A stretch of DNA of 64,000 nucleotides from a virus (lineage: Duplodnaviria; Caudoviricetes): the IMG/VR virus record IMGVR_UViG_3300031993_000015; one strand, 5' to 3'. Shown here piece by piece: positions 21,279-52,068 of this stretch. Each line of letters opens with the position of its first letter. The first letter of the stretch is position 1. The notes below the pieces were generated by a model. That model was not told the origin of the DNA. It did no database searches and saw only the letters and a list, made by a program, of their open reading frames with translations. Made by a program: the position numbers and the translations under genes.

Positions 21279-23162
21279 ATGGCTTATTACGATCTTTCAG
21301 GTGGCGCACCCTTCGGCGGAAGGATGAACCCCTTCCGTACATACAGCAACTACATATACCCCAAGAACATAGACCAGGTTCTCATCTGGGCCGAGTGGTT
21401 CTGGGAGCGCAACGCCAAGTACCGCACCTGCATCCAGAAGTGCATCAGCTACTTCGTATCCGGCATCAATGTGATCCAGATGGACAAGAAGGAAGCTGCC
21501 GATTCGCAGGCTGTCGAGTCCCTGCATGACATGCTGGTTGACGAATACGACCTGTTGAATCTCATCAATACGGTCGGTGTGGAACTGGCTGCGATGGGCA
21601 ACGTATTTGTCTCCTGTGAACGCCCGATCAGCCGTTGGCTGCTGTGCCCTGAGTGCGACTGGATGATGGCGCTGCGGCAGCTGACCAGGGGCGTCGAGTT
21701 CGAGTGGGACGGAAAGCAGTTCACGGGAACCTGCCCGAAGTGCGGTCGCAAGGTCGTCTACAACATCCACGACGATCCGACCACGGACGAATACGGCCGC
21801 AAGGTCCGGTTCATCTTCCGTGCTCCGCAGGACATGTTCGTCCAGTACAACCGCCTGACCGACTCTTTCCAGTACTTCTACAAGATTCCGGATGATATCA
21901 AGAACGCCATCAAGCGCGGTGAGATGGCTTATCTGCTGAATACCCCGAAGGCGTTCCTGGATGCCGTGCATCAGGATGGCCTGGTCAAGTTCCCGGAGGA
22001 CATGTTCTTCGCGGCGCGTACCAGAACGCTGACCCCGCTGGACGAACGGTACAAGGGCTGGGGCGTTCCGCTGTTTATGACCAGCTTCGACAATTTCATC
22101 CGGCTGCAGCATCTCGACAAATTCAATGAGGCCGTCACGATGGACTACATCGCGCCGGTCCGTATCATCAGTCCCAGACCGCAGAACATTGCGGCGTCCG
22201 CACACGATCCCAACAGGCTGCCCATCGGCGGCGGTCAGTTCATGTCCTTTATCCAGAACGGCATTCGTCGTGTCAAGGACAACCCGACGACCTGGCTGGT
22301 CAGCCCGACGCCTGTCGAGTACCAACTGATCGGTGGCGAAGCCAAAGAGCTGACACCCGTGGACCTGATGGAATGGTATGTGACCCAGATCCTGTCCGAT
22401 ATGGGGATCCCGCAGGAGTTCCGCCAGACGACTTTCCAGGTCGTTGCGCCGTCTATGGGCATGCGCATGTTCGAGCGCCAGTGGCGGCCGAACACGAAGC
22501 CGATGGATGCGTTCACGCGGTGGGCCGGCGAGAAGATCTGCGACTACGAGAAGTTCGCCAACATGCGTGTCACGCTGGATGTCACCAGCTTCGTCGAAGA
22601 CGACATGAACAAGCAGATGCTGTTCCAGCTGATGACCGGCGGCCAGATCTCCAAGACGAACGTTCTGAAGACACTCGGTGTGGACTTCGAGGAAGATCTC
22701 AAGATGCGCATCAACGAGATGAAGAAAGAGCGCGAGCAGTTCACCAAGGAAGACAAGGCACAGCAGGACCAGGAGATGGTCGGCTCGGTGTTCCCGCCGC
22801 AGGGTATCGCCGGCGTTATGCAGGCGCAGGGTGTCATGGATGCCCAGATGGCTGCGCTGCAGCCACAACAGCCACAGCAGCCCGGAGCCCCGATGGGTCC
22901 TGGCGCACCGGCTGCACCTGCGCCGGTTCCGGCCAGCGACACGGAAGGTGGCGGACAGCCGCTGGGCAGTGTCTGGGAACAGGGTGCGCAGGAAGCGCAG
23001 AGACTCTACAACGCGCCGCCTAACGTCCGCCGTCAGGAACTGGTCAACATGAAGGCGACCAATCCTGAACTGCATGCGGCTGTCACACAGCAGCTCCAGA
23101 ACATGCGCCAGCAGGTCGCTTCGGATGCCGTGGCCCAGTCCCAGATGCCACAGCCGCAGTGA
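21279..23162 (+). CDS. Probable portal protein with Zn-ribbon insertion and Q/P-rich tail
   Basis: Size and position at the head of the structural block; GNVFVS and GWGVP...EAVTMDYIAPVRII segments; CPEC...CPKC insert. Confidence 0.55.
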   Translation: MAYYDLSGGAPFGGRMNPFRTYSNYIYPKNIDQVLIWAEWFWERNAKYRTCIQKCISYFVSGINVIQMDKKEAADSQAVESLHDMLVDEYDLLNLINTVGVELAAMGNVFVSCERPISRWLLCPECDWMMALRQLTRGVEFEWDGKQFTGTCPKCGRKVVYNIHDDPTTDEYGRKVRFIFRAPQDMFVQYNRLTDSFQYFYKIPDDIKNAIKRGEMAYLLNTPKAFLDAVHQDGLVKFPEDMFFAARTRTLTPLDERYKGWGVPLFMTSFDNFIRLQHLDKFNEAVTMDYIAPVRIISPRPQNIAASAHDPNRLPIGGGQFMSFIQNGIRRVKDNPTTWLVSPTPVEYQLIGGEAKELTPVDLMEWYVTQILSDMGIPQEFRQTTFQVVAPSMGMRMFERQWRPNTKPMDAFTRWAGEKICDYEKFANMRVTLDVTSFVEDDMNKQMLFQLMTGGQISKTNVLKTLGVDFEEDLKMRINEMKKEREQFTKEDKAQQDQEMVGSVFPPQGIAGVMQAQGVMDAQMAALQPQQPQQPGAPMGPGAPAAPAPVPASDTEGGGQPLGSVWEQGAQEAQRLYNAPPNVRRQELVNMKATNPELHAAVTQQLQNMRQQVASDAVAQSQMPQPQ

Positions 23163-29878: not shown

Positions 29879-30817
29879 ATGAATATCGAACGAATTAAAA
29901 ATTCGATGCTCAAGACAGCTGCAGCTCATGTCAGCATTTCGTATCCCTGGGTTATCCATAGTGATGGTCGTGTCGAGGGGTATGGACAGGCCCCTACCAT
30001 AACGACAACTGGAATGCCTGACATATCCAATGGTTTTGGTGGTAACACCCAGGACAGTGGAAAATACGATTACGAAGGCAACTACCAATTGCAACGGGCA
30101 GCAGAAGCGGCGGATCGTGCAAGACAGCTGGAACTTTATGGTCCAGCCGACAACATGTCCAAGTACAATGAGATATACAATTCCGCAGTTCCAATGGAGA
30201 AAGCACGTCAGATCAATCAGATCAACGAGATGTCTCTGCAAAATCCCGTTGCAGCTGCTTACAATAAACAGCAGTCATCCAGTATGCTGTCGCCACGACA
30301 GCGTGCTTATAATAACGGTGCGAGGGTTTTGAATACTCTCGGAAGTATGATGGACAGAGGTCTCAATCGTATCGGCGAAATGTACGATGCCAATCTGACC
30401 AGAGCTAAAGAAGCGCAAGGTCTTACACCTGCTCAGATCCATGGACCGTCAGCAGCCGAATATCAAAAGGGTCACGAGATCTACGGCCCAAATGATACTA
30501 CGGGCTTCATGACACCGGTACGCAACTCACCGCTGTGGGAGAAGACACCACAGGACTACGCAAGAGATGCTGAAATGGCCAAGCGCAACAAGAAATGGGA
30601 TGCCCAGAGTAAGAAACGCAGAGCTATTTGGGATGCGCAATCAAGGGCTCGTCAGTTCAAGAGAAACCAAGAACGCTTCGGTAGTTACCTGGATGATGCA
30701 CGCAATGCATGGTCGCCCGAAGAACGTGATCGCGCTTTGATGAAGGCACGTCTCCTGCCCCCAAGAGATGCATCTGATGAGTTTACGCAGCATGTTTGGT
30801 TCCCTGGAGAAATTTGA
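29879..30817 (+). CDS. Putative internal head protein
   Basis: MNIERIKNSMLKTAAA leader. Confidence 0.55.
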   Translation: MNIERIKNSMLKTAAAHVSISYPWVIHSDGRVEGYGQAPTITTTGMPDISNGFGGNTQDSGKYDYEGNYQLQRAAEAADRARQLELYGPADNMSKYNEIYNSAVPMEKARQINQINEMSLQNPVAAAYNKQQSSSMLSPRQRAYNNGARVLNTLGSMMDRGLNRIGEMYDANLTRAKEAQGLTPAQIHGPSAAEYQKGHEIYGPNDTTGFMTPVRNSPLWEKTPQDYARDAEMAKRNKKWDAQSKKRRAIWDAQSRARQFKRNQERFGSYLDDARNAWSPEERDRALMKARLLPPRDASDEFTQHVWFPGEI

Positions 30818-31539
30818 TGCCAGACACCACCGGTACACTCAACAATCTCGTCAGGGCTCAGCAGAAGTTCATCGCGAACGTTCTGGATGAGAAGCCCACA
30901 CAGATCTACAGGCTGGACGATTACAAGCAGATCAGGAATGCGCTGTTCGACAACGTGAAGAACGCTGTGCAGAAGCGCTTCCCTCTGTTCAATGATCGCT
31001 ACACCTTGGCTGTTGAGGACATCGACTATGATGACCCTGACGAGATCGACATCACGAAGCAGAAACAGTGCATCCTGGAAGGCAAGTCCTGCGACCGTCG
31101 CCTTCGCGGATCCTGGGTGCTTCGTGATGCAGCGACTGACAAGGTCGTGAGTAAGACCAAGCGCATGACTCTGATGCGCGTGCCCTACATGACAGACCGT
31201 GGAACTTTTATCCGCAATGGCCACGAGTACGCCTTCACGAATATCATGCGCCTGGAACCCGGTGTGTACACGAAGAAGCGCGACGACGAGATCTCCGCAC
31301 AGTTCAACGTGCAGAAAGGGACCGGCGCTGGCTTCAATATGTTCCTGACACCGGAAACAGGCATCTTCAAGATCAAACGAGGAACTACCAGCTGTCCTGC
31401 TTACACGGTATTCAAAGACCTCGGTGTGACCGACGACCAGATGCAGGAAGCCTGGGGACAGGAACTGTTTGAGAAGAACAAGAAGGCAGGCACGGACGAG
31501 AAAGCTCGTCAGGCTGCCTCCAAGATCTACAACATGTGA
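30817..31539 (+). CDS. rpoB: RNA polymerase beta subunit, N-terminal fragment
   Basis: VPYMTDRGTFIRNGHEY...MRLEPGVY corresponds to RpoB IPLMTxxGTFIINGxER...RSPGVY. Confidence 0.85.
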   Translation: MPDTTGTLNNLVRAQQKFIANVLDEKPTQIYRLDDYKQIRNALFDNVKNAVQKRFPLFNDRYTLAVEDIDYDDPDEIDITKQKQCILEGKSCDRRLRGSWVLRDAATDKVVSKTKRMTLMRVPYMTDRGTFIRNGHEYAFTNIMRLEPGVYTKKRDDEISAQFNVQKGTGAGFNMFLTPETGIFKIKRGTTSCPAYTVFKDLGVTDDQMQEAWGQELFEKNKKAGTDEKARQAASKIYNM

Positions 31540-31546
31540 GAACATC

Positions 31547-32179
31547 ATGCAGACATACGCAGAGTTCAGAAAGACAGCACAGACTGTGACGGACGTGTGG
31601 ACGCCTGGTATGATGACGCCTCAAGAGGCTGCTGATTACCACAAGTCTGTGCAGGAAGCCAACAAGATCAGCGACGCATACACATACACTGTTCCAGACG
31701 ATTCAGATTTCGATGACGGCGGTCCGACCTATTTCGATTTGAAGAGACAGGAAATGGAAGATGCGCGTGCTGCTCGTTTTGGCGAAGAACACAGGTTTGC
31801 AGAAGATGCATCGGACATACTGTCTGATGATGGTCCTGGCGAGTTCGGTGAAGATCTCGGAGCACCTGCTGAGCCGCCATCTGTTCCCAAGACACCGATT
31901 CCGCCTAAGCCGCCGACGGTGCAGACCAGGACTACGCCGAATGTGTTTGTAGCCACGAATACAGGTGCTGATCTGAATAAGATGTATCAGAATGCAACGA
32001 ATCCTGTGAATCCGACAGGTCGCAGGAATGTCGCGGGCTCCACTACATATAAGCCAGCGCCGTCTTCATTCAAGCAGCCGACGCAGGCAGATGCGGAGCC
32101 GAAAACGCCAATGAAGAAATTCCAGTCATACCAGGAGTTTCGCACCAAGAATGGCTTGTACGCGAAAATCACCGCATGA
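31547..32179 (+). CDS. Putative internal head protein (CTS-like leader)
   Basis: MQTYAEFRKTA leader; P/T-rich; C-terminal SYQEF. Confidence 0.55.
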   Translation: MQTYAEFRKTAQTVTDVWTPGMMTPQEAADYHKSVQEANKISDAYTYTVPDDSDFDDGGPTYFDLKRQEMEDARAARFGEEHRFAEDASDILSDDGPGEFGEDLGAPAEPPSVPKTPIPPKPPTVQTRTTPNVFVATNTGADLNKMYQNATNPVNPTGRRNVAGSTTYKPAPSSFKQPTQADAEPKTPMKKFQSYQEFRTKNGLYAKITA

Positions 32180-32277
32180 CGCACCCACTAATGTAACGAA
32201 GGACAACATCCTTTCCAAATAGAAACCAACAAAAGCTATCTCGATAGCAACCAAACATAACACAGAGGAGTCTTACA

Positions 32278-32844
32278 ATGACTTACAACGAAGCAGTCGC
32301 TCGTGCTCGCATGGCCTATGGCCAGATCAAAACCGCTGGCAGTTACGATGCAAACGGAAACTATCAGCTGTCCGAACTCGACAAGACCGACGTCCGTCGC
32401 AAACAGTCCGAGATCGAACACGGTTCTCCGAAGACCGTTCCGCACTCCACGCCGGCTGAAAAAGCAGAACGCGCTATGGCGGTGAATGAGGCTTCCCTCA
32501 ACAACCCGACTGGCGTCACCAATCAGAGCTTCCCCGGCGGCATCGAAGATGCCTACGAGGCTCTCGCTGCTGACAGACGCAGCAATGCGCTTGCCGGTAC
32601 TGGTATCGGTGCTCTCGCCGGTCTCGGCGTTGGCGCTGGTGCCTACGGACTGATGGGTCTGTTCCCGTCCCTCCGCAAGCGTCGTCTTCTCCGCGCCCTC
32701 ATCGCTCTCAGCGCCGGTGGTGCTGCCGGTACCGCCGCTGGTATCGCGACGGCCAGAGGTCTCAACAGTGGCAAGATTCAGGGTGCCTACGCTGACTATT
32801 CCGGTCGCCTCGGCAACGCGCTCAACGCACTCAAGGGTGCCTGA
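32278..32844 (+). CDS. Putative virion glycine-zipper protein
   Basis: MTYNEAV...IKTAG; AGTGIGALAGLGVGAGAYG; AGGAAGTAAGIA. Confidence 0.55.
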   Translation: MTYNEAVARARMAYGQIKTAGSYDANGNYQLSELDKTDVRRKQSEIEHGSPKTVPHSTPAEKAERAMAVNEASLNNPTGVTNQSFPGGIEDAYEALAADRRSNALAGTGIGALAGLGVGAGAYGLMGLFPSLRKRRLLRALIALSAGGAAGTAAGIATARGLNSGKIQGAYADYSGRLGNALNALKGA

Positions 32845-32912
32845 TTTCTGTCAAACATCGCAGGGAGTGTCTCCACACGGGGACCCTCCCTGTATTCTTA
32901 AAGAGGTGACAA

Positions 32913-33911
32913 ATGAACTCTCTTGAACTTCTTGCAGTCGTTGCCGCCCAGGGCATGGTCAAGACTGCTGCCCCTCTTCCCGGACGCTTCCTCGCCGGCG
33001 GCAAGTCGGCGGATGAACAGCTGACCGAAGATCTCATGAACGACTACTGGGCTCGTATGCGTGCTGGCGATGCCAATGCGCAGGCTCCCGCCGACGAGGA
33101 CACCAGCGTTGGTCGCTTCGGCCGTTCCGCTGCCGATACAGGCGTTGACCTGGCCACGATGGCCGGTGCCTACGGCGGCTGGAGAGGCGGTTCTCGTCTC
33201 GGCGACGCTATCGCAAATCGCGTCGGCGGCCGTATCACTGGTCTGGCTGACCGCGCTGGCGCTGCTATCCAGGATCGTCTTGGACGCGCTGGTACGAATC
33301 TCGAAATCGGTGCCGGTCGTGTTACCAGAGGCCTGACCAATGGCGCTGAAAGACTGGCTGGCAATCTCGAAAATGCCGGTCGCAATGTCGGTCGTCGCGC
33401 CGGCCGTGCTGCTGGTACTGTGAAGGGCAACCTCCGCGCTCTGCCTTACAAGGCTCCGCGCCTTACATCGCGCATCGGCAATGGTCTCAGACTTCCTGCC
33501 GAAGGACTCGCTCAGTTCCCGACTTTGCGCAACCGCGTCTATCCCGGACAGCTCGGAAATCCGACTGCTGTTGATGCAGTCAAGGGCTACGGCAAGCGTC
33601 TGGCTCAGGGTACCAAGGGCAACATGGCTGCTCGTGGTGCTGCTCGCGGTGCTCGTGCTGGTGCTGCTGCCGGTCGTGGCGTCACTCGTGGTGCCGGTGC
33701 TCTCGCCAATGGTGCGAACACTGCTGCCAATGCGATCTCCAGAGGCAGTGCTGCCGCTGGTCGTGGTGTTGGTCGTGGTCTGTCTGCTGCCGGTCGCGGT
33801 GCGGTCAGGGCTATCAAACCCGCTATGGGTGGTGCCGGTGCTGTTGCACTTGGTACACTGTCCAATCTGGCTGCCAACTACGCAGCGGATCGTATCTTCG
33901 GTCAGGGCTGA
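32913..33911 (+). CDS. Putative virion protein, Gly/Ala/Arg-rich amphipathic repeats
   Basis: GMVKTAA; AGRGVxRG repeats. Confidence 0.55.
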   Translation: MNSLELLAVVAAQGMVKTAAPLPGRFLAGGKSADEQLTEDLMNDYWARMRAGDANAQAPADEDTSVGRFGRSAADTGVDLATMAGAYGGWRGGSRLGDAIANRVGGRITGLADRAGAAIQDRLGRAGTNLEIGAGRVTRGLTNGAERLAGNLENAGRNVGRRAGRAAGTVKGNLRALPYKAPRLTSRIGNGLRLPAEGLAQFPTLRNRVYPGQLGNPTAVDAVKGYGKRLAQGTKGNMAARGAARGARAGAAAGRGVTRGAGALANGANTAANAISRGSAAAGRGVGRGLSAAGRGAVRAIKPAMGGAGAVALGTLSNLAANYAADRIFGQG

Positions 33912-33916
33912 CGCAG

Positions 33917-33939
33917 ATTTTCAACTTCAAGTTGAAAAT
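33917..33939. repeat. Dispersed 23-bp palindrome, copy 3 (perfect, intergenic)
   Basis: ATTTTCAACTT-C-AAGTTGAAAAT. Confidence 0.85.
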
Positions 33940-33941
33940 TC

Positions 33942-33973
33942 AGAGGACTCCTCATTGGGGTCCTCTTTCTTTT
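33942..33973 (+). terminator. Rho-independent terminator upstream of the large RNAP gene
   Basis: AGAGGACTCC/GGGGTCCTCT followed by TTCTTTT. Confidence 0.7.
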
Positions 33974-34016
33974 ATAGTAGAATGATACGCGGAGACTACA
34001 TAAGAGGAGAATAACT

Positions 34017-37000
34017 ATGCCTGATGCACCTGTTTCACCGATACAAGCTGCCGGTACTGCCATGACCAATATCCGGCTCACACCGGAAAAACCGCTCAAG
34101 ACCGCAGCTGACTGGGTGCGCGATATGCGCATGTCACCCAGTGTGAACAAGACCACAACAGGTGTGGACACTGCTCAGGTGAACGGCGAGTTGATGCTCG
34201 CTACCTCAAAGCGTCTACTCGGTATTTCCAGGGGCAAGCAGGAACCAGACCCGAAGGACTCCCTGGAGTTTCAGCGGTTCTATGGCCCAGCCGAGTACTT
34301 TGCAGAACACGTGCTTCGTGACGGCAACAAACTGGGGCGCAACATCCTGTGGAAAGCAACAAACGTTGGCAACCTGGATTTCATGCCAGTCAATGCGCTG
34401 GACAAGCACATCAGTGACGTCTACTACGACAGCAAGCTCGCCCAGATGATCGACGGTTCCTCTCCACTGGAAACAGTTGATGCCTCCTACAAGACCACCC
34501 GTATCGGTGAAGGCGGCGTTGGAGACCTTGATTCAGCTCCTGACGAGATGCGCACAGTGCAGCCATCCTTCCTCGGTTTTGTAGATCCGGTCCGCAGTCC
34601 GGAGAGCTTCCGCGTCGGGTTGGATGTCTATATGACTAAGAATGTTATGAAGGGATCCGACGGAAAACTGTACCAGAAATTCATCAATGCACATACAGGC
34701 AAGGAAGAGCTGGTCGATTCCGAGACCATCGCGAAATCTGTTGTGACAACGCCTGAGATGATGCACTCCAAGACCAAATCGGTGTTCGCTATGGGCGGCC
34801 CGACTGGCGTCCGCATCGTTCCTCGCAAGGACGTTGACTACTACCTGCCCAGAGCAGATGAAGCCTACAGCATGTCTTCCAACATGGTGACGATGCCGTC
34901 TGCAGTCATCGGCATGCGACTCCTGATGGGTTGTCTGCATCCGGACACGAACGTACTGGTTGCGGATGATCACAACATGATCTCCATGAAGCCGGCCAAG
35001 TATCTGACCGCGCACAACCAACGCATCCCAGGCATGACCAGCGAGTTCAAGACCGCCTGCTACGATATGCAGAATACAATCGCCAAGCTGACACCGAAGC
35101 CGCGCTGGTTCAAGAAGATTGTCACAAAGTCCGGCCGAGTCCTCGTCACCAGTTATGACCATCGCTGGCCCGTTCTCATCAACGGCAAAATGACTCTGGT
35201 CCAGGCACGTGACTTGAAACCTGGCGATACTATCCTGCGCTCTGCTTTCCGCGATGTACCGAATCGGCGCACGTTCCTGAACAAACATCTCATCACGAAG
35301 GATGTTGCCTTCTTCCTGGGACTCCTCTGTAGATCCGCCAAGAGCAACAAGCGTGGGTCTGTCACGTTCCGCTACAAGTGTGGTGCTGACGTCAGGATTC
35401 GTGATGCCATTCATTATGTTTGGGGTGACTGCAAGCCGGTTATCCGGCAGTATAAGAAAGACGGGTTCTACTGCATGACTGTGCGCTGCGAAGCGCTTTG
35501 GCAGTTTGTCGAAGACCACATCGGTTTCACAGACAGCACCCGTGACATCCCATCCGAGATTCTCAGCACTTACGCAGAGATCGTTGCCGAGTTCCTGAAC
35601 GGGTACACTTGCGATGACACTATGATGGGTACAGACAGCAACGAGGACATCTGGATTTTGTTCATTCCGAACATGAAGGTGCGCGACGAGCTGTCCTTCC
35701 TGTTCGCCCGTATTGGTACTGACACGCTGTACCGCGATGCTCCTGGTGCAGATCCCAATCATGTCGAGATTGCACTGAAGATCAGCGACACTTCCAGGCT
35801 CTGGAACGACATGTACAAAGACACCATCAAGTACGTCTGGGAAGGCCCGCGCTGTCCTATCATGGTTGACATCGACATCAACGACAACATGTATGCAGTC
35901 GCCAACGGCATCGTGACGCACAATTCCAAGTACCCGCTGCAGGCCATTTCGCTGGAACACAGAGAGGCGCCGCTTGTGCGTACTCTTGACGAGGCCTCCG
36001 GCAAGGACATGTCAACACTGGTCGGCAAGTTCCTGGGAGCCAGGTTTGCACCACAGGGTGGCGTCGTCACGGCAGTCCGCAAGGATCGCATCGACGTCAT
36101 CTGGGACGACGGCAGCAAGGGTGCGGTTCCTCTGTATGTGAATTTCCCGATGAACGCCAAGGGCTTCATCAACAATACACCGGTCATCAAAGCCGGTATG
36201 CCATTCAAGAAAGGCGACATCCTGGCCAGTTCCAACTACACGGACAAGGACGGAACGGCTGCTCTTGGTATCAACCTGAAGTCCGGCTGGATCAGCTGGA
36301 AGGGCGGCACTTATGAAGACGCTGTTGTCATCAGCGAGGAAGCCGCCAAGAAGCTGACCAGCACGACCATGTATAACACATCGGTCGATCTGGATAAGAC
36401 CATAAGCCTGGGCAAGAAGAACTACATCACCTGGAAGCCTGCCGAGTACACAAAGGAGCAGATGGAACAGCTGGACGACAACGGTATAGTTCGACCTGGC
36501 ACTGTACTGCACAAGGGCGACCCGATGATTCTGGCTGTCCGTACATCGGAACCCAGTCCAGGTACGATGGGTAAGCGCATCCTGACAGATCTGTCCGAGA
36601 CGTGGGATCATGACCATGAAGGCATCGTGACAGATGTTGTCAAGACGCGCAAGGGTGTCAAGGTCTTTACGACTGTGACTGCTCCGGCGGAAGTCGGCGA
36701 CAAGATTGCCGGTCTGCACGGCAACAAGGGCACGATTGCTCAGATTCTGCCAAAGGAACAGATGCCGCAGACCAAGCAGGGTACCCCGCTTGATATCTGT
36801 TTCAGTCCTTTGGGAGTTACCAGCCGCAACAATACGGCGCAGCTCTATGAGGCGCTGCTCGGCAAGGTTGCGAAGAAGACCGGACAGATTCAGACTTTGC
36901 CGGCGTTCTTTGAAGGCGACTTGCATGACTATGTCGAAGGCAAGCTGAAAGAAGCGCATGTACATGCTGACGATGACCTGGTAGATCCGGAGACAGGTCG

Positions 37001-38741
37001 TGAGATCCCCGGTGTTCTTACAGGGTTCACCTATGTACACAAGCTGAAACACCTGGCGGAATCCAAGCTGTCCGCTCGTGGTACCGGCGAGTACTCTGCT
37101 GATGAAACACCCAGTGGCGGCGGTCGCACAGGCAGCAAGCGCTTTGGTTCCCTGGAAACATCGGCACTCGTTGGGCACCAGGCATTTGAGACGCTCAAGG
37201 ACGCAAAGATTCTCCGTGGTCAGTCCAACGCAGACTTCTGGCGGTCTATCAGAACAGGCTCCATTCCGACAATGCCCGGTGAGCCGCTGGTCCACAAGAA
37301 GTTCTTTGCGCACCTCATCGGCTCTGGTGTGAACGTCCGCAAGACCCAGAAGGGCATCAGCACATTTGCGCTTTCCAATGACGATGTGAATGAACTGACC
37401 GGACCCAGAGAGCTCCGTTCCAGAGATACGTATGAAGCCAAGAACTTCCGTCCAATCGACGGTGGTCTGTTCGGCCAGGACGTGTTCGGCATCAACGGTG
37501 ACAAGTGGGGCTACATCAAGCTCGACGAGCCGGTTCCGAATCCGGTCATGGAAGAGCCGCTTGCCAGACTGCTCCGTATGCCTGACAAGACTTTCACAGG
37601 AGTTGCAACCGGAAAGATTGAATACAACGGTATTCGTGGTCCTCTGCAGCTCCGCGATGCGCTTGCGAATATTGATCTGAACAAGGAAGCCAAGAACGCG
37701 CTGATCGAACTGAAGAACGCACCGACCAGCAAGAAGGATGCGATGCTGAAGCGGTATGTCGCCATCGAGCGCATGCGCCGTGCAGGTGTGAGTCCTGATA
37801 AGTACATGCTGGACAAAATTCCGGTGTTGCCTCCGCAGTTCCGTCCAATCACGTCGCACAACGGTCTGACGATGGTGGCTGACAGCAATTATCTGTATGC
37901 GCAGCTTCTGGATGCCAGAGATGACGTGCGAGAGGCCCGCGAGTTACCGGAAGAGTTCCAGCAGCAGGCTCGTGAACGTCTGTACAAGGACTGGAAGGAA
38001 CTGACCGGTCTGTATGAACCAGAAAACAAAGCCTTCAAGGCTAAACATATACAAGGGCTCCTGAAATGGGCGCTTGGCGACAGCCCGAAATTCAGCGCCG
38101 CGCAGCGAAAGGTTATCAGTTCTACTGTAGACACCGTAGGCCGTGGCGTCATTACACCGAACCCAAGACTGAAACTCAACGAAGTCGGTATTCCGGAAGA
38201 AATGGCATTCGGCATCTTCTCTCCGTTGATTGAGCGCGGTCTGGTCCAGCGTGGCTACACTCCTGTGGAAGCCATCAAGCAGGTGCATGACAAGTCTCGT
38301 CAGGCCAGGGAGCTGCTGACAGAAGTCATGAAGACACACCCTGTCATCATGAATCGTGCGCCTACGCTGCACAAGCTGAGTGTCATGGCGTTCAATCCTG
38401 TTCTTGTGACAGGTCATGCGCTTCAGATCAACCCATCCATTGTGGTGCCCTTCGGTGCAGACTTCGACGGCGACACTGTGAATATTCATGCGCCAATGTC
38501 TGACAATGCCCGTGAAGAGGCCAGACGCAGGATGTTCCCGGAGCGCAACCTGATCGCCATGAAGAACCGCCAGATAGCGTACAAGCCTGAGAAGGAATAC
38601 CTGCAGGGTATCTACACCGCGAGCCGTATTAACGACAAGTCCACGATACGCCCCCTCTTAGTTAAGGATCTGGCTGAGGCTCGTGAGGCGTATCGCAAAG
38701 GGCTCATCAACATAGACGATCCCATTGACATGCAGAGCTAA
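34017..38741 (+). CDS. rpoBC: RNA polymerase fusion: beta (middle and C-terminal) plus beta-prime (N-terminal through the catalytic site), intein-containing
   Basis: Beta motifs DPVRSPES..VG, YEDAVVISE, GDKIAGLHGNKG, SPLGVTSR, KLKH, KRFGSLE. Beta-prime motifs GGLFGQDVFG, IPVLPPQFRP, GRGVI, NRAPTLH, GADFDGD. Confidence 0.92.
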   Translation: MPDAPVSPIQAAGTAMTNIRLTPEKPLKTAADWVRDMRMSPSVNKTTTGVDTAQVNGELMLATSKRLLGISRGKQEPDPKDSLEFQRFYGPAEYFAEHVLRDGNKLGRNILWKATNVGNLDFMPVNALDKHISDVYYDSKLAQMIDGSSPLETVDASYKTTRIGEGGVGDLDSAPDEMRTVQPSFLGFVDPVRSPESFRVGLDVYMTKNVMKGSDGKLYQKFINAHTGKEELVDSETIAKSVVTTPEMMHSKTKSVFAMGGPTGVRIVPRKDVDYYLPRADEAYSMSSNMVTMPSAVIGMRLLMGCLHPDTNVLVADDHNMISMKPAKYLTAHNQRIPGMTSEFKTACYDMQNTIAKLTPKPRWFKKIVTKSGRVLVTSYDHRWPVLINGKMTLVQARDLKPGDTILRSAFRDVPNRRTFLNKHLITKDVAFFLGLLCRSAKSNKRGSVTFRYKCGADVRIRDAIHYVWGDCKPVIRQYKKDGFYCMTVRCEALWQFVEDHIGFTDSTRDIPSEILSTYAEIVAEFLNGYTCDDTMMGTDSNEDIWILFIPNMKVRDELSFLFARIGTDTLYRDAPGADPNHVEIALKISDTSRLWNDMYKDTIKYVWEGPRCPIMVDIDINDNMYAVANGIVTHNSKYPLQAISLEHREAPLVRTLDEASGKDMSTLVGKFLGARFAPQGGVVTAVRKDRIDVIWDDGSKGAVPLYVNFPMNAKGFINNTPVIKAGMPFKKGDILASSNYTDKDGTAALGINLKSGWISWKGGTYEDAVVISEEAAKKLTSTTMYNTSVDLDKTISLGKKNYITWKPAEYTKEQMEQLDDNGIVRPGTVLHKGDPMILAVRTSEPSPGTMGKRILTDLSETWDHDHEGIVTDVVKTRKGVKVFTTVTAPAEVGDKIAGLHGNKGTIAQILPKEQMPQTKQGTPLDICFSPLGVTSRNNTAQLYEALLGKVAKKTGQIQTLPAFFEGDLHDYVEGKLKEAHVHADDDLVDPETGREIPGVLTGFTYVHKLKHLAESKLSARGTGEYSADETPSGGGRTGSKRFGSLETSALVGHQAFETLKDAKILRGQSNADFWRSIRTGSIPTMPGEPLVHKKFFAHLIGSGVNVRKTQKGISTFALSNDDVNELTGPRELRSRDTYEAKNFRPIDGGLFGQDVFGINGDKWGYIKLDEPVPNPVMEEPLARLLRMPDKTFTGVATGKIEYNGIRGPLQLRDALANIDLNKEAKNALIELKNAPTSKKDAMLKRYVAIERMRRAGVSPDKYMLDKIPVLPPQFRPITSHNGLTMVADSNYLYAQLLDARDDVREARELPEEFQQQARERLYKDWKELTGLYEPENKAFKAKHIQGLLKWALGDSPKFSAAQRKVISSTVDTVGRGVITPNPRLKLNEVGIPEEMAFGIFSPLIERGLVQRGYTPVEAIKQVHDKSRQARELLTEVMKTHPVIMNRAPTLHKLSVMAFNPVLVTGHALQINPSIVVPFGADFDGDTVNIHAPMSDNAREEARRRMFPERNLIAMKNRQIAYKPEKEYLQGIYTASRINDKSTIRPLLVKDLAEAREAYRKGLINIDDPIDMQS
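34932..35924 (+). mobile_element. Intein (331 aa) with degenerate LAGLIDADG-like domain
   Basis: Starts CLHPDTNV; block B VTSYDHRW; ends ANGIVTHN followed by Ser. Removal restores RLLMG-SKYPLQA (RpoB RALMGSNMQRQA). Confidence 0.9.
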
Positions 38742-38777
38742 GGTAAGACAAATACCAGATTATACAAGGAGGCATAA

Positions 38778-39737
38778 ATGCCATACATTCCCTACAATCA
38801 GTTCATGCGCAAAAGCGCAGTCGCCGTTCTCACTCCGGAAGCCATGCAGGCAGCTATGCAGCCACCTCCGCAGGACCCTGGTATGATGGGCGGTCAGCCT
38901 CCGATGGATCCTTCCATGCAGGGCGGCATGATGCCTCCCGGCGGTGCGCCTCCGATGGACCCGTCCATGATGGGTGGTGCTCCCATGCCTCCGCAGGGTG
39001 CCCCGATGGATCCTTCTATGATGGGTGGGCAGCCTCCTATGGATCCCTCGATGATGGGCGGCGCTCCGGCCGGCGGTCTCCCGCCTGAAGCCATGCAGGA
39101 CCCAATGTTCATCCAGTTCCTGGCAGAGGCTATGGGCATCATGCTCGACCAGACGTCCGGCCAGTTCTTCGACCAGTCCGGCCAGCCGGTTCCTCCCGAT
39201 GTTCTGATGCAGGCATATCAATCCTACATGCAGGCCATGCAGCAGATGCAGTCCGGCGGCATGCCGATGGATCCCACCATGATGGGCGGACAGCCTCCGA
39301 TGGATCCGGCGGCAATGGGTGGTGCTCCTATGGATCCCGCCATGATGGGCGGGGCTCCTGAAGAACAACCGATGGATCCCATGATGCAGGAACTGGCCAG
39401 TCTGATGACGAACGTTGTCGGCGATGAAGTTGTCACACCGCTGAAGCAGGCCATCGAAAACATCGGCAAGCAGATGAACGACCTGAAAGAGCTCATCAAG
39501 ACCATGCGTGATGAAATGGACGTGGTCCGCGACCAAGTCGATTCTCAGGCGCATACCGATGACAAGCGCAAGCAGGAAGACAAAGACGAAGAACAGAACC
39601 TGCGCGACGAACTGGCCGCTGAACTCCAGCCGACAGTTCCGCAGGAACCTGAAGTAAAGACAGCGGCGGCTCAGCCGGCACAGCCCGCAGAGCAGTGGCG
39701 TCCTGTCAATATCATGGATGTCCTTGGGAGGAAATAA
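38778..39737 (+). CDS. Putative internal head protein with PMDPxMMGG repeats and coiled coil
   Basis: YNQFMRKSA leader; about 8 PMDP(S/T/A)MM-like units; VKTAA. Confidence 0.6.
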   Translation: MPYIPYNQFMRKSAVAVLTPEAMQAAMQPPPQDPGMMGGQPPMDPSMQGGMMPPGGAPPMDPSMMGGAPMPPQGAPMDPSMMGGQPPMDPSMMGGAPAGGLPPEAMQDPMFIQFLAEAMGIMLDQTSGQFFDQSGQPVPPDVLMQAYQSYMQAMQQMQSGGMPMDPTMMGGQPPMDPAAMGGAPMDPAMMGGAPEEQPMDPMMQELASLMTNVVGDEVVTPLKQAIENIGKQMNDLKELIKTMRDEMDVVRDQVDSQAHTDDKRKQEDKDEEQNLRDELAAELQPTVPQEPEVKTAAAQPAQPAEQWRPVNIMDVLGRK

Positions 39738-39740
39738 CCC

Positions 39741-40553
39741 ATGCAAACCTACACTGAGTTCCTTATGGTGAAGAAGGCTGGCGACGAAGACGACAGCTAT
39801 CTGGCGAGTCTTGCGACACGCAAAGAAAACGGCGATGAGAAGGTGCAGGAAGCACTCAGCACAATGGCTCCTGGTGAGTTTGGCTGGGGTCTGCTCGGTG
39901 CCGGGCTTGGTGCAGGTGGCGGTTATCTTGTATCCCGCTGGCTGCGTCGTAACGGTACGAAGCGCCAGCGTGCTATGGACATGATCCTTGGTGCGCTTCT
40001 TGGCGGTGGTGGCACGATGCTTCTTATGAACACACTTCCAGGCAGTCATGGTCTTACTCAGGCGGAAATGCTCAGAGCTCGTAAACTGTACGAGAAAGAG
40101 AATCCTGGCAATAAAGACAGGGCTATGGACGATAACGGGAAGGTACCCACACCACCGGAAGAGGTCGCGGCACAACATGCACGTGAGGCAGCTGGCACAC
40201 TGATTGGTGGTTGGCTCGGTAACAAGCTGTTACCAGCTGATACGATGCTTGCCAATGTCAGACTGAAACGTGTTGCAAATAAACTTGGTGTGCCAAAGAG
40301 TGATTTTGCTGCATGGCGTAATTCCGGAACAGACGCAAAGGGACGCGGTACACAGGCACCATATATGGTGAACGGGAAAGCGGTTCCAGGCGGTCAGGAT
40401 ATTCTAAGAACCGACACTACAGCTCGTAATCTGAAGGGTGCTGGGACAGCAGCAAACTGGGTTCTCGGTGGTATCGGCGGTAACATCGTGGCTCGTAAAT
40501 ACGGTGATGACATCGGCAAGGTCTTGTCGAATTTCCTGTTCCCCGCGAAATAA
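39741..40553 (+). CDS. Putative virion glycine-zipper protein (CTS-like leader)
   Basis: MQTYTEFLMVKKAG; GLLGAGLGAGGG; GALLGGGG; GGIGG. Confidence 0.55.
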   Translation: MQTYTEFLMVKKAGDEDDSYLASLATRKENGDEKVQEALSTMAPGEFGWGLLGAGLGAGGGYLVSRWLRRNGTKRQRAMDMILGALLGGGGTMLLMNTLPGSHGLTQAEMLRARKLYEKENPGNKDRAMDDNGKVPTPPEEVAAQHAREAAGTLIGGWLGNKLLPADTMLANVRLKRVANKLGVPKSDFAAWRNSGTDAKGRGTQAPYMVNGKAVPGGQDILRTDTTARNLKGAGTAANWVLGGIGGNIVARKYGDDIGKVLSNFLFPAK

Positions 40554-40562
40554 GGATTGCTC

Positions 40563-42410
40563 ATGCGGACTACGCTTGGCAGAGAACTGATCCGGTCGAA
40601 ATTACCGGAGAAATTCAAAGGTTGGGCTGACAAGGTTCTTGACAAGAAGAACCTCACAGAGCTCATGACACAGATGGCCCTGGATGACCCTGACGGATAC
40701 GTCGATGTTCTCCAGGACCTGAACAATCTGGGTCAGACCGTCGTGTCCCTGTATGGCAGGAACACGGCTCTTCCTTTCGAGGACATCAAGATTTCGAAGG
40801 GTGTCAAGAGCCTGAACAGACAGCTGCATGAAGTCATTGACAAGGTTCTCAATGACGACCATCTGACCGAGAAGCAGAAGGAAGCCAAGATCACCGACCT
40901 CTGCTACAAGTACACCAAGAAGGTCGAGGACGCTGTCTTTGCAGACAATGACCGGCGCTCCACAGCGTTCGCTTCCCAGATCAATTCAGGTTCCCGTGGC
41001 AATAAGACTCAGCTGATGCAGATGCAGTTCGGCAACATGGGCATGAAAGATGCCCTGAACCGTGACATGCCCTATATGATGATCGACCCCTACGCAATCG
41101 GCGCATCACCGATGGGCTACTGGGTGTCTGCTTCATCTGGCCGCAAAGGTTACTACGACGTCCAGATGGCGACCGGCCAGTCCGGTTATCTGGGCAAGCG
41201 TGTGACTGCCGCAACACATGACACAGTCATCAGCGAAGATGACTGCGGTACCACTGACACTGGTATTCCGTTCCCTGCGAACAGCGAGAAGAACATCGGT
41301 GCAGTCCTGCTCCGTCCTTGGCATAAGTATCCGGCCGGCACAATCGTGACCGGCAAGATGGTTGGCGAGGCTGACGAAGGCGAGGAGATGGTTCTCCGCA
41401 GCCCGATCACATGTAAGAGCAGACATGGTATCTGTGCCAAGTGCAGCGGTCTTGGTGAGAATGGTAAGTTCCCCGGCATTGGTGAGTTCGTTCCTATGAA
41501 CGCAGCTCGTTCCTTTGTAGAAGTTATGACACAAAGTTCGGTCGGCAGCAAACATAAAGGGGGTGTCGGCGGCCGCAAAGTCGTTGATCCTGAAGGAGAA
41601 GACCAGCCCACCGGGTTCCGCGCTGCAGAGCGCATGTTCACTGTTCCGAAGAACTTCCCTGGGGGCGCTGTTCTGACACCTGTTGATGGCACCGTTACGA
41701 ACATCCAGGCAGCTCCGCAGGGTGGCAGCTACATCACTGTTGGTGGTTCCACGGTTTATTCTTCACCGGCCCGCACAATCAAGGTCAAGGTCGGTGACAA
41801 AGTGTATGCCGGCGACGTGCTGACCAATGGCGTACCGAATCCTGCTGACATTGTCGGCTACAAGGGTCTCGGTGAAGGCCGCCGGTATTTCACCAACAAA
41901 CTGAACACGGTTCTTAAGGATCTCGGCTGGGGTACGGACAGACGCAACATCGAGTCGTTCTCCAGAGCGTTCCTGAATAAGGTCGAAATTACAGACCCGG
42001 ATGGGTTCGGCAACTACCTACCAGGCGACATCGTTGACTACAGTGCGGTGGCTGCAGATTGGGAGCCTCGCGAGAACTCCATCACAACCAAGGCTGACAA
42101 GGCGCTGAACATGTACCTTGAAAAGCCTGTATTGTACTACAGCGTTGGAACTCGGATTACGCCCGAAGTGGCGAGCACGCTGAAGAAGTACAAATTCGAC
42201 GACGTGACGGTCTCCGATAAGGAGCCGCCATTCTCGGCGAAGTTCCTGCGTCCTACCGAGGCGCTGCAGCACAGCCAGTACTGGTTGCCCCGTATGGCGG
42301 GCGAACGGCTGCGCGACAGCCTTTTCGACGCAGCACGTCAGGGAATCACTGATCCCTATGACTCACCAAGTTATGTAGACAAAATAGTGGCACAGCCATT
42401 CAAACCATAA
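40563..42410 (+). CDS. rpoC: RNA polymerase beta-prime subunit, C-terminal fragment
   Basis: TTLGR, SGSRGN, GRKG..D....T..SGYL.KR (bridge helix), EDDCGT, RSPITC....GICAKC, trigger loop TQ.....KH.GG. Confidence 0.9.
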   Translation: MRTTLGRELIRSKLPEKFKGWADKVLDKKNLTELMTQMALDDPDGYVDVLQDLNNLGQTVVSLYGRNTALPFEDIKISKGVKSLNRQLHEVIDKVLNDDHLTEKQKEAKITDLCYKYTKKVEDAVFADNDRRSTAFASQINSGSRGNKTQLMQMQFGNMGMKDALNRDMPYMMIDPYAIGASPMGYWVSASSGRKGYYDVQMATGQSGYLGKRVTAATHDTVISEDDCGTTDTGIPFPANSEKNIGAVLLRPWHKYPAGTIVTGKMVGEADEGEEMVLRSPITCKSRHGICAKCSGLGENGKFPGIGEFVPMNAARSFVEVMTQSSVGSKHKGGVGGRKVVDPEGEDQPTGFRAAERMFTVPKNFPGGAVLTPVDGTVTNIQAAPQGGSYITVGGSTVYSSPARTIKVKVGDKVYAGDVLTNGVPNPADIVGYKGLGEGRRYFTNKLNTVLKDLGWGTDRRNIESFSRAFLNKVEITDPDGFGNYLPGDIVDYSAVAADWEPRENSITTKADKALNMYLEKPVLYYSVGTRITPEVASTLKKYKFDDVTVSDKEPPFSAKFLRPTEALQHSQYWLPRMAGERLRDSLFDAARQGITDPYDSPSYVDKIVAQPFKP

Positions 42411-47308: not shown

Positions 47309-48766
47309 ATGATGAAGAAAAGTTTCCTCCCTGAGTCCTTCAACTTCGATGTCCAGCCGGTAGAGATCATCGGCCTGGGCTCCAAAGGGCTTGACAAGAC
47401 GGCGATGGTGAAACGCGCCAGCGCGTTCGATGATGTCATCGACAAACTGGAGAAGAAAGCCAACCGCACGTATCTGCATGTCATCACGACCGGTGCATAT
47501 GAGCAGTACGGCCCGAACATGAACGGTGATGGCTGGAACGGTGAGTCCTTTGAACTCAAGTTCCCGCACCCGGAGAACATGTCGAAGAAAGCGATGGTTC
47601 TCGACGGCGGCCTGTCCAAGTATCACGATGATACATACATGAAGGACGGCGCTGTGTACCAGGAGCACCAGACTAAGACTGCCGGCGTGGATCCGTCCGG
47701 CGAAGTGGTCGCTGCCAGGTACAATCCGATGATGAAACGCGGCGAACTCATTATTGCCGTGGATACTGAGAAATGGGCGCCCAGGCTCCAGAAGAAAGCC
47801 AAGGGCGAGAACATCTATCTCAGCATCGGCGCATCTGTTCCTCACGACATTTGTACCATTTGCGGACGCCAGGCCAAGACAGCCAGTGAGCACTGCAGTC
47901 ACTTCAAGATGCACCGTGGCGAAGTCTATGACTGCGGCGTTCGCTCCTGCGTGATGAACGACCGGCCGGATTTCTATGACATCTCTGGTGTGAATGTGCC
48001 GGCCGACAAGATCGCGTTCGTTCTACAGGAAGTCGGTCACGGCGATAAGCTGACCAAGACCAGCTCCTTGCACGACATCATGCAGCAAGCGACACAGACA
48101 GTCGGTGTCCGTCCTCCGATGGTGCTCACGAAGGCTGCCATGATCCTGGGCAAGCTGGCCCGCATGGAGAAGCAGATCGAGGGTATCGTCGAGGGCGACA
48201 AGAAGCCTGATAAGGACGCTTTTGAACACGAAGATGACGCAGAGAAAGATTTTGAACTTGAAGTTCAAAATTATCCTGCCGATGAGGTGATCGACGGTGC
48301 GAACCGCAAGGGCATCCTGCTGACTCCAGGCATGCTGTTCCGTTTGCTTGGCAAGGAATGCTCTGATCCGGATAACGCGCTGAAGGACTGTGACGACGAA
48401 TCCTGTGGCGATCTGTCATGCATGATGCGTGAGCTGGAGGATGATGAGGATGTCAATGATGAGCTGCTGGACGGTTCTTTCGACCAGCATCCGCCTGTGG
48501 ATCTGAACCTCGACAGCATTCTGGAGAAGTTCGTTCCGATGTTCGGGATGACGGACCCCGCTGTCAATACACGGGTTATCCACATCACAATCGTCGGCGC
48601 TCCGAAACACGGTACTGTAGACAAGAAGGCGTCTCTGAATAAGTTCGCACAGGAAGCCCTGCGCAGGACCTATGCCAGATACCTCATCAGTTTTGCTGCT
48701 CAGAACAACGACAGCACCTGCATGAACGCCCTCATGAAAATAGCTGGAATCGGGAAACGCGGCTGA
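47309..48766 (+). CDS. Prohead (capsid maturation) protease with Zn-finger insert
   Basis: NMNGDGW, VYQEH, LSIGASVPHDICTICG..CSH, FYDISGVNVPADKIA; located upstream of scaffold and capsid genes. Confidence 0.72.
   Translation: MMKKSFLPESFNFDVQPVEIIGLGSKGLDKTAMVKRASAFDDVIDKLEKKANRTYLHVITTGAYEQYGPNMNGDGWNGESFELKFPHPENMSKKAMVLDGGLSKYHDDTYMKDGAVYQEHQTKTAGVDPSGEVVAARYNPMMKRGELIIAVDTEKWAPRLQKKAKGENIYLSIGASVPHDICTICGRQAKTASEHCSHFKMHRGEVYDCGVRSCVMNDRPDFYDISGVNVPADKIAFVLQEVGHGDKLTKTSSLHDIMQQATQTVGVRPPMVLTKAAMILGKLARMEKQIEGIVEGDKKPDKDAFEHEDDAEKDFELEVQNYPADEVIDGANRKGILLTPGMLFRLLGKECSDPDNALKDCDDESCGDLSCMMRELEDDEDVNDELLDGSFDQHPPVDLNLDSILEKFVPMFGMTDPAVNTRVIHITIVGAPKHGTVDKKASLNKFAQEALRRTYARYLISFAAQNNDSTCMNALMKIAGIGKRG
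48249..48271. repeat. Dispersed 23-bp palindrome, copy 4 (perfect, intragenic)
   Basis: ATTTTGAACTT-G-AAGTTCAAAAT. Confidence 0.85.
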
Positions 48767-51108: not shown

Positions 51109-52068
51109 ATGGCTTGGGATCAAATCAAAGTTGCTTCCGTTTCTGAAGACATCCGCGCAAAGTTCGCCACCGGCGACAAGGACATGTGCAAGCAGGGCAC
51201 ACTCGCTGCCAACGACTACTTCCGCACAGAAATCCGCTCCAACGGCATCCGTCGTCAGATCACTCCGCCTGTCCAGGTCACGAAGGACATGTTCGACCCG
51301 TCCGAGACCTCCGACATTCCGATCATCTACGCCGAGGTCGCTCCTCGCTCGTCCGGCGCCTACATGGTCTCCTTCGAGACTGGCCCGAAGAACGAGAACA
51401 TCTACGGCAACAAGATCCGCATCGAACTCAACCGCATCATGACCAAGAAGTACAGCATCGACAAGATCCGTCTCGATGCCTACAAGATGCCGCTGCTTGA
51501 GATCCTCGAAGACCTGCTCCTCAAAGACATCATGGATGTCGAGGACAACGTCACCATCGGTCTCGACAAGGACATCTGCGGTCCTCTGAACACGGTCAAC
51601 CCCTGGATGGGCTGCCGTCGCTATGTCACCTGCGGTGGCATCAGCCGCGAAGCTCTCGTGCACCTCAAGAAGGGCATGCCTGTGGCTCCTGGTCATCTCA
51701 TGACCAAGAAGTTCCTTATGAACGACCTCACCTACTTCGATCTCGGCGCTCTCGACCGTACCGAAGTCGGCGGCGACATGGCGCAGGAAATGTTCGTCAA
51801 CGGCGTCACCACCTCCAAGATCCAGGGCATCGACACGGTCGTCACCATCAAGACCGACCTCATCCCGACCAAGGAAGTGTTCATCTACACCGATCCGATG
51901 TACTACGGCGGCTTCTACGTCTACAACGACGTCACGATGGTCGTCGATGAAGTCGATGACATCTGGATGACCTTCTTCGCCCATGAGTGCGTCGGCGCCT
52001 CCGTGGCCAACAGCCCCGGCGTTGCCCGTGCATCCCTCACCGGCACCCTCGTCGATTGGGAAGGCTAA
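51109..52068 (+). CDS. Major capsid protein (HK97-like)
   Basis: 319 aa, very strong codon bias, AAGGAGG RBS, followed by a terminator; EIRSNGIRRQITPP, FAHECVGASVAN; IKVAS leader. Confidence 0.7.
   Translation: MAWDQIKVASVSEDIRAKFATGDKDMCKQGTLAANDYFRTEIRSNGIRRQITPPVQVTKDMFDPSETSDIPIIYAEVAPRSSGAYMVSFETGPKNENIYGNKIRIELNRIMTKKYSIDKIRLDAYKMPLLEILEDLLLKDIMDVEDNVTIGLDKDICGPLNTVNPWMGCRRYVTCGGISREALVHLKKGMPVAPGHLMTKKFLMNDLTYFDLGALDRTEVGGDMAQEMFVNGVTTSKIQGIDTVVTIKTDLIPTKEVFIYTDPMYYGGFYVYNDVTMVVDEVDDIWMTFFAHECVGASVANSPGVARASLTGTLVDWEG

Follow-up and report, generated by a model that had tools for sequence, protein, structure and literature searches.

A phage RNA polymerase in three genes, with both catalytic barrels in one intein-containing chain

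Introduction

The 64,000-nucleotide stretch of DNA analysed here (the window) belongs to a tailed phage (Duplodnaviria; Caudoviricetes; IMG/VR virus record IMGVR_UViG_3300031993_000015) and carries three genes for a multi-subunit RNA polymerase (RNAP) of bacterial type. The first encodes an N-terminal fragment of the beta subunit (chain 1), the second joins the rest of beta in frame to the N-terminal half of beta-prime (chain 2), and the third encodes the C-terminal part of beta-prime (chain 3). Chain 2 is further interrupted by an insert that we identify, from sequence conservation and a structure model, as an intein. Below we present the evidence for this layout, its distribution among relatives, and an account of how the enzyme may be assembled, directed to promoters and delivered.

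Results

Three collinear genes encode the RNAP core

The window corresponds to the reverse strand of positions 41226-105225 of the 178,489-bp record, which CheckV rates as complete. The three RNAP pieces proposed by a first-pass annotation of the sequence lie where it had placed them, as judged by Pfam domains, by alignments to proteins of Salmonella phage Arash and to solved structures, and by the motifs it had quoted: KRFGSLE, GSGVNV, ALSNDDV, GGLFG and GADFDGD are all contained in chain 2 (coordinates of all features are collected in Table 1). In the single 1574-amino-acid (aa) frame of this chain, Pfam recognised RNA_pol_Rpb2_6 at residues 716-1028 (E = 9e-56) and Rpb1_1/Rpb1_2 at residues 1246-1504 (E = 6e-27), in agreement with the earlier statement that the two catalytic barrels share one polypeptide. 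Relative to E. coli, residues 61-203 correspond to beta 426-572, and the C-terminal end falls near beta-prime 550. The joint between beta and beta-prime, located between GSGVNV and ISTFALS, measures about six residues. The lysine region of the beta barrel (GDK...HGNKG) is present, GDKIAGLHGNKG is conserved across the family, and the aspartates D1482, D1484 and D1486 of the catalytic DFDGD loop (residues 1482-1486, DNA 38460-38474) are invariant across it. By eye, chain 2 has no counterpart of the four-Cys zinc site found in bacterial beta-prime.

Chain 1, whose ATG overlaps the stop codon of the preceding gene, gave no match when its 240-aa product was searched against Pfam. It aligns with residues 29-204 of Arash gp206 (E = 5e-22), with residues ~99-225 of solved bacterial beta subunits (best E = 3.6e-6) and with profile positions 107-214 of PHROG 24349; its residues 113-214 match E. 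coli beta 118-225. Chain 3, which likely starts at the ATG at 40563, six bases after AAGGA, contains Pfam Rpb1_5 (E = 4e-15) and aligns end to end with Arash gp216 (E = 3e-68). It spans the region of the bridge helix and the trigger loop and aligns with beta-prime of solved enzymes from approximately E. coli position 570 to the end. Compared with the 1525-aa Arash gp206, chain 2 aligns in two blocks (residues 21-291 with 231-512, and ~636-1512 with ~515-1464). The three chains are thus collinear with gp206 and gp216, the sole unmatched part being chain 2 residues 306-636.

As a separate observation, chain 2 residues 141-168 (window 34437-34520) were aligned by eye with the rifampicin cluster I region of E. 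coli. The positions which we take to be E. coli His526 and Ser531 are occupied by Ala and Thr, so that the phage enzyme may be insensitive to rifampicin.

Table 1. Features of the RNAP locus and related genes. Positions are those of the window, except where the genome record is named.
Feature	Position	Strand	Remarks
Portal gene	21279-23162		shared with Arash (23-32% identity)
Beta N-terminal fragment gene (chain 1)	30817..31539	+	240 aa; roughly E. coli beta 1-250
Intervening gene	31547..32179	+	210 aa; starts MQTYAEFRKTA; leader; no family match
Intervening gene	32278..32844	+	188 aa; leader ends IKTA; Gly/Ala-rich hydrophobic segment; only partial match in L008
Intervening gene	32913..33911	+	332 aa; leader ends VKTA; Gly/Ala/Arg-rich
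Terminator-like hairpin	33942..33976	+	10-bp stem, then T run; directly before the fused gene; AGGAG ribosome-binding site after it
Fused gene (chain 2)	34017-38741	+	1574 aa; rest of beta, without stop, into beta-prime up to the DFDGD catalytic loop
N-extein	34017..34931	+	residues 1-305; ends at the RLLMG motif
Intein (from sequence and model)	34932..35924	+	331 aa, residues 306-636; starts CLHPDT, ends THN, then Ser
C-extein, beta part	35925..37337	+	residues 637-1107; beta catalytic barrel with GDKIAGLHGNKG, to the beta C-terminus (GSGVNV)
Linker and beta-prime N half	37338..38741	+	about six linker residues, then beta-prime to residue 1574
Intervening gene	38778..39737	+	319 aa; Pro/Gly/Met-rich; leader ends RKSA; conserved in L008, L010, L011
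Intervening gene	39741..40553	+	270 aa; starts MQTYTEFLMVKKA
Beta-prime C-terminal fragment gene (chain 3)	40563..42410	+	615 aa from ATG (617 aa from TTG at 40557)
Structural protein gene	47309-48766		shared with Arash (23-32% identity)
Major capsid protein gene	51109-52068		shared with Arash (23-32% identity)
Sigma-like gene	genome 35723-36532	-	homologue of Arash gp10; ~4.7 kb past the window end, on the window's strand
Sigma-like gene	genome 134640-135614	+	Sigma70_r2; like Arash gp196; outside the window

Chain 2 is interrupted by an intein

Residues 306-636 of chain 2 are without counterpart in Arash, in Vibrio phage D69 and in one IMG/VR relative, L022 (relatives are cited by our locus numbers). 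They interrupt a conserved beta motif (RxLMG/SKxPxQA), which in this phage reads RLLMG / SKYPLQA. In five orthologous inserts, 32-64% identical to each other, Cys1, an SGRxLITSxxHxW block and a terminal HN followed by Ser are invariant (C1, S74...H77 and H330-N331, then Ser). Searched against the PDB, a profile built from these five sequences matched inteins only (PI-PkoII, 1.8e-5; gp41-1, 4e-4). The single intein sequence gave no real match in the PDB, and the relationship emerged only from the five-sequence profile and from a fold search. In the latter, an AlphaFold2 model of the insert (predicted local distance difference test, pLDDT, 70; predicted template-modelling score, pTM, 0.73) was compared by Foldseek and retrieved VMA inteins with endonuclease, PI-PfuI, PI-PkoII, PI-SceI and I-DmoI (best E = 4e-14). 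Sequence and model together identify residues 306-636 as a LAGLIDADG-type class 1 intein, with a Hint fold and an inserted endonuclease domain.

Each of the two motifs of a canonical LAGLIDADG endonuclease ends in a catalytic acidic residue. Inspected by eye, the first motif of the insert reads LGLLCRS, with Arg/Ala-Ser replacing the catalytic acid in 5/5 orthologues, and the second motif retains its Asp. The intein at residue 306 was found in every member of the window's clade. Given an acid-less first motif and an insert carried by all members, the endonuclease is probably dead and the intein fixed, splicing-competent and no longer mobile. The first-pass annotation was right about the 1574-aa frame and overlooked the intein within it; since a 331-aa intein is present, the 1574-aa chain would be a precursor, and the mature chain would measure ~1243 aa.

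The fused layout recurs in independent assemblies

The same three-piece layout was found in at least nine other assemblies, including L008-L011 and L019-L021. In four IMG/VR relatives (58-82% identity), a separate beta-N gene lies 1.6-5.8 kb upstream of the fused gene, and the gene for the C-terminal part of beta-prime lies downstream. An independent Logan contig keeps this order with genes of 241, 1573 and 616 aa, its beta-N being 88% identical to that of the window and ending at the same residue. Overall, independent assemblies that are 58-92% identical keep the cut points, with lengths of 240/241, 1572-1574 and 616/617 aa. This recurrence refutes the notion that the two cuts arose through faulty assembly or sequencing, or mark decaying pseudogenes, in favour of which nothing was found; the frames are moreover open, and the catalytic and splicing residues are conserved. 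We therefore attach practically no credence to such an explanation, and the splits noted in the first pass can be taken as genuine.

A protein search with the junction region yielded 868 proteins at E <= 1e-10. The best 120 of these are at least 62% identical and 879-2755 aa long; all of them contain Rpb2_6 and Rpb1_2, intein, LAGLIDADG or Hint domains are frequent, and none has an informative name. An exhaustive search with a junction profile of 448 positions returned, at E <= 1e-30, 2600 cluster representatives. Of these, the best 150 span the whole junction, except for a few cut short at the protein start, and many are ~2000-2100 aa long. With metagenome protein clusters defined at 50% identity, the junction spans at least 150 clusters. 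The fused layout is genuine and occurs commonly among uncultured phages. In the literature we found no paper on a fused phage beta/beta-prime RNAP, or on inteins in one. Annotation pipelines label these genes "beta" or "hypothetical", overlook the inteins and can mistranslate relatives in which TAG is recoded (see below).

Four grades of the layout can be read from 26 IMG/VR loci carrying the junction. In L023, L024, L025, L026, L028, L029, L035 and L037 (27-36% identity), the N- and C-terminal parts of beta-prime follow each other without a stop, giving a single chain of ~2000 aa; the beta end of L024 runs off the contig, and in L025 the codons that end the chain 2 part and begin the chain 3 part directly follow each other in a single frame. 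In the Arash-type grade, whole beta is fused to the N-terminal part of beta-prime, the C-terminal part being a separate gene. L022 (40% identity) has an uncut beta and a different intein. Among the 26 loci, only the window's clade has a separate beta-N gene and an intein at residue 306.

Relatives carry extra in-frame inserts after chain 2 residues 193, 897, 937, 1039 and 1485 and near chain 3 residue 331, each, by eye, in or beside a conserved RNAP motif. Those at 193, 897, 937 and 1039 have intein-like ends; the insert in the C-terminal part of beta-prime was seen by blast only. In L008 (14453-15952), and also in L011, L019 and L020, the catalytic loop is split (ADFDG/D) at the same site by an in-frame insert of 0.5 kb to 1.7 kb, whose ends are not those of a typical intein: it starts with N-C or S-C and ends with W or Q before D-T. 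If unspliced, this insert would leave an enzyme without metal site.

A further observation concerns the genetic code of some relatives. TAG is a sense codon in L011/L021 (IMGVR_UViG_3300045988_176357), L020 (IMGVR_UViG_3300028048_000092) and L043 (JAGCGL010000102.1), and the fused gene of L011 contains 64 in-frame TAGs. Compared with unrecoded relatives, TAG positions correspond to 93 E, 38 D and 10 Q; in L011, GAA plus GAG are down from ~28 to 7, and Gln codons are level. It thus looks as if TAG is read as Glu rather than Gln. A search for tRNA genes in the 192-kb recoded record gave two tRNA-Met only, and a CUA tRNA was not found.

Genome setting and further transcription genes

The genome contains one set of beta and beta-prime only. 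Profiles for alpha and omega (PF01000, PF01193 and PF01192) were without match anywhere in the 178-kb genome, while the control profiles matched in 14/14 genomes; very divergent versions of alpha and omega could escape such a search. The first-pass annotation had recognised no alpha, omega or sigma gene in the window, which holds true, and two sigma-like genes lie elsewhere in the genome (Table 1). Arash gp10, homologous to one of them, was detected in virions at 100% sequence coverage (PMC10585845).

Cultured phages are only distant kin of the window phage. At 23-32% identity, it shares with Arash (180.8 kb), besides the structural genes listed in Table 1, the RNAP genes, a few tail-side genes and an RNA ligase. 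The RNAP genes are located between the portal gene and the major capsid gene; the terminase large subunit gene is outside the window. A scan of prokaryote genome contigs gave as sole match a 4-kb contig of a Spirochaetia metagenome-assembled genome from yak omasum, too weak for a host call.

Sigma-70-type promoter patterns and terminator patterns showed no enrichment. An AT-rich palindrome, TTTTCAACTT/AAGTTGAAAA, is found at 33916-33940, immediately ahead of the terminator-like hairpin that precedes the fused gene. An Rfam scan matched no family in the window, which hence contains no known intron.

Genes between the RNAP chains share a leader with head genes

Three open reading frames separate chain 1 from chain 2, and two separate chain 2 from chain 3 (Table 1). 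All five encode low-complexity proteins with a short N-terminal leader ending in K-x-A, and the 332-aa Gly/Ala/Arg-rich product accounts for a local rise in GC content. Searches of these five and of ten neighbouring genes with Pfam and PHROGs gave nothing useful. Many genes in window 23171-52068 likewise start with an M-x-T-Y-x-E-F-like leader ending in K-x-A. K-x-A occurs within the first 32 residues in 13/21 genes from portal to capsid, including the major capsid protein, compared with 24.5% expected (binomial p = 3e-4). The leader resembles the capsid-targeting sequence MKTYQEFIAE of T4 internal proteins, and it may be a prohead-protease cleavage code. The first-pass annotation had taken the interleaved genes for head cargo, a hypothesis with which the common leader agrees and which we retain as such.

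Alternatively, the gap genes could be selfish mobile elements, for example free-standing homing endonucleases, that have split the gene and are not virion cargo. This would fit the gap between chains 1 and 2, which ranges from 1.6 to 5.8 kb and has other contents in each relative, and a homing endonuclease annotated under the fused-gene match in Vibrio phages D181 and D148. However, neither Pfam nor PHROGs revealed a nuclease or other family in the five open reading frames of the window, and the leader is found on all five of these low-complexity proteins as well as on the gap genes of relatives, which are otherwise unrelated to them. We thus consider mobile elements a very unlikely explanation and favour virion cargo.

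Discussion

A proposed account of the enzyme and its delivery

We consider it likely that the three genes encode the core of the phage's only RNAP, matured by intein splicing, held together by a tether, guided by phage sigma factors and loaded into the capsid. The core would be a slimmed bacterial-type two-barrel enzyme without alpha or omega, to which chain 1 would supply the first part of beta. Chain 2 would be made as a precursor from which the intein splices itself out, so that the mature chain would consist of the remaining beta, about six residues, and beta-prime to just past DFDGD, with both barrels tethered. Chain 3 would supply the bridge helix and the trigger loop, and the three chains would assemble as the uncut protein does in relatives. 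In this assembly, the covalent tether between beta and beta-prime may replace the scaffold that is given by the alpha dimer in bacteria. Promoter choice may fall to the two sigma-like proteins whose genes the phage carries outside the window, and the enzyme may be loaded into the capsid together with the leader-bearing proteins and enter the cell with the DNA.

Packaging had already been suggested in the first pass, and the data on Arash speak indirectly in its favour, as do the location of the RNAP genes between the portal and major capsid genes and the excess of K-x-A leaders in that block. The Arash paper reports, for mass spectrometry of purified virions, 3516 spectra for gp206 and 1210 for gp216; gp206 has the most spectra of any virion protein, above the major capsid protein (PMC10585845).

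Several points weigh against the account as a whole or parts of it. The Arash homologues are only ~30% identical to the window's chains, and the window phage is known from sequence alone. The Arash virion list comprises 116 proteins, including ribonucleotide reductase and ligases, and its authors concede that abundant proteins may have been carried over (PMC10585845). Chains 1 and 3 are without K-x-A leader. Chain 2 has K-T-A at residues 28-30, and the uncut protein of L022 has it too at the equivalent internal position (LLDKTAAT, L022 ~4700-4800), so that K-T-A may belong to the fold and not act as a signal. Only conserved residues point to splicing, and the idea that the tether stands in for alpha draws on tethering experiments reportedly done in E. 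coli. On balance, our analysis leans towards packaging of the window phage's RNAP in the virion, with less assurance than we have for the account overall.

A competing reading takes the enzyme as real and purely intracellular, acting as an unpackaged middle or late RNAP, with early genes transcribed by host RNAP that phage sigmas redirect. The lack of a leader on chains 1 and 3 fits this reading, as does the possibility that the sigma-like factors also serve the host core enzyme. So does the Arash proteome, which includes many cytoplasmic enzymes, so that abundance in that preparation is no proof of packaging. It is harder to reconcile with the top rank of gp206 among the virion spectra in the same source (PMC10585845), with the position of the RNAP genes inside the head module, interleaved with leader-bearing genes, and with the presence of just one RNAP set in the genome. 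We therefore hold a solely intracellular role to be unlikely, though deserving of attention, and retain the packaged enzyme as the preferred reading.

As a broader and tentative proposal, less probable than the account given for the window phage, the fused enzymes (single ~2000-aa chains, Arash-type pairs and three-gene forms) might constitute a large, separate, alpha-free lineage of phage RNAPs, carried in the capsid and giving phages of ~180 kb independence of host RNAP from the outset of infection. In the window's clade, the additional cut would then lie at a K-T-A linker like the leaders cut by capsid proteases, a gene fission having copied a former protein cut. In L022, LLDKTAAT falls at the point that corresponds to the split between two genes in the window's clade, which raises the idea of a protease site predating the gene split.

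The layout indicates that a bacterial-type RNAP can be re-partitioned, with both barrels in one chain, neither alpha nor omega, and an intein in a conserved beta motif. In metagenomes from gut, rumen and the environment, the fused family is very large. As it has culturable members, Arash and Vibrio phage D69, both the assembly of an RNAP without alpha and the delivery of a phage's own polymerase are directly testable.

Comparison with known systems

In Helicobacter and Wolbachia rpoBC, as in the window, the beta C-terminus is joined directly to the beta-prime N-terminus. These bacteria, however, fuse whole beta to whole beta-prime and have alpha and omega, whereas the first 240 residues of the window's beta are encoded by another gene and its beta-prime part stops after the catalytic loop. 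The cut in beta-prime had been placed by the first-pass annotation near the point that separates rpoC1 from rpoC2 in cyanobacteria, a split also found in plastids. This did not hold: residues 193-524 of the cyanobacterial 625-aa gamma chain align with query residues 576-903, chain 2 ends near gamma residue ~560, and the cut lies ~65 residues before the cyanobacterial one.

As class 1 inteins go, the insert in chain 2 resembles PI-SceI, PI-PfuI, PI-PkoII and the Tli/Pho VMA inteins in the predicted Hint fold with inserted LAGLIDADG domain, in Cys1 and in His-Asn followed by Ser, and in its site, a highly conserved motif of an essential enzyme. It differs from them in that its host protein is a phage RNAP beta subunit and in that the acid of the first LAGLIDADG motif is lost.

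Jumbo phages of the phiKZ/AR9 type have RNAPs of four or five separate chains in two paralogous sets, without sigma, and a review of jumbo phages describes only this split, unfused phiKZ type (PMC7598289, PMC7824862). The window phage shares with them a cellular-type RNAP in pieces, a beta-prime cut after the catalytic barrel and the lack of alpha, a virion form being known for the jumbo phages; it differs in its single set, its fusion and its sigma-like genes.

The first-pass annotation had also linked the window phage to the mReC lineage, and its layout could then be a local rearrangement of mReC genes. In the loose sense of the name, a tailed phage with beta and beta-prime that Pfam recognises would qualify, and mReC phages are likewise uncultured tailed phages with beta and beta-prime recognisable by hidden Markov models. 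The mReC study, however, kept only contigs on which beta and beta-prime were two proteins, each at least 800 aa long, and on which beta-prime contained NADxDGD (Weinheimer and Aylward 2020, PMC7481178). Each of the table rows consulted lists two different proteins of at least 899 aa for beta and beta-prime, the contig often having two sets, and in the parts searched no fusion, split or intein was found reported (PMC7481178). The genes of the window are fused and cut, and chain 2 reads GADFDGD. Ten taxon ids of fused-type contigs, looked up in the mReC supplements, gave no matching contig. The beta-prime of Rhizobium phage RHph_Y65, a possible stand-in for mReC, matched none of the viral contigs scanned with it, and the best 150 of the 2600 junction-profile representatives span the junction. 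Kinship with the published mReC lineage, as far as these comparisons go, is not supported, and we regard descent of the layout from mReC genes as improbable.

The nearest counterparts are found in the Arash group. The Arash paper labels the genes simply beta and beta-prime, and no mention of a fusion was found in the passages searched (PMC10585845). Arash differs from the window phage, at ~30% identity, in having an uncut beta, the first 230 residues being included in gp206, and in having no intein. In Arash (gp206 and gp216, OQ632216) as in Vibrio phages D69, D181 and D148, beta is in frame with the N-terminal half of beta-prime and the C-terminal part of beta-prime is separate, just as in the window. 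Arash and the D69 group further share with the window phage an RNAP beside the portal in the structural module, a genome of ~180 kb and sigma-like genes.

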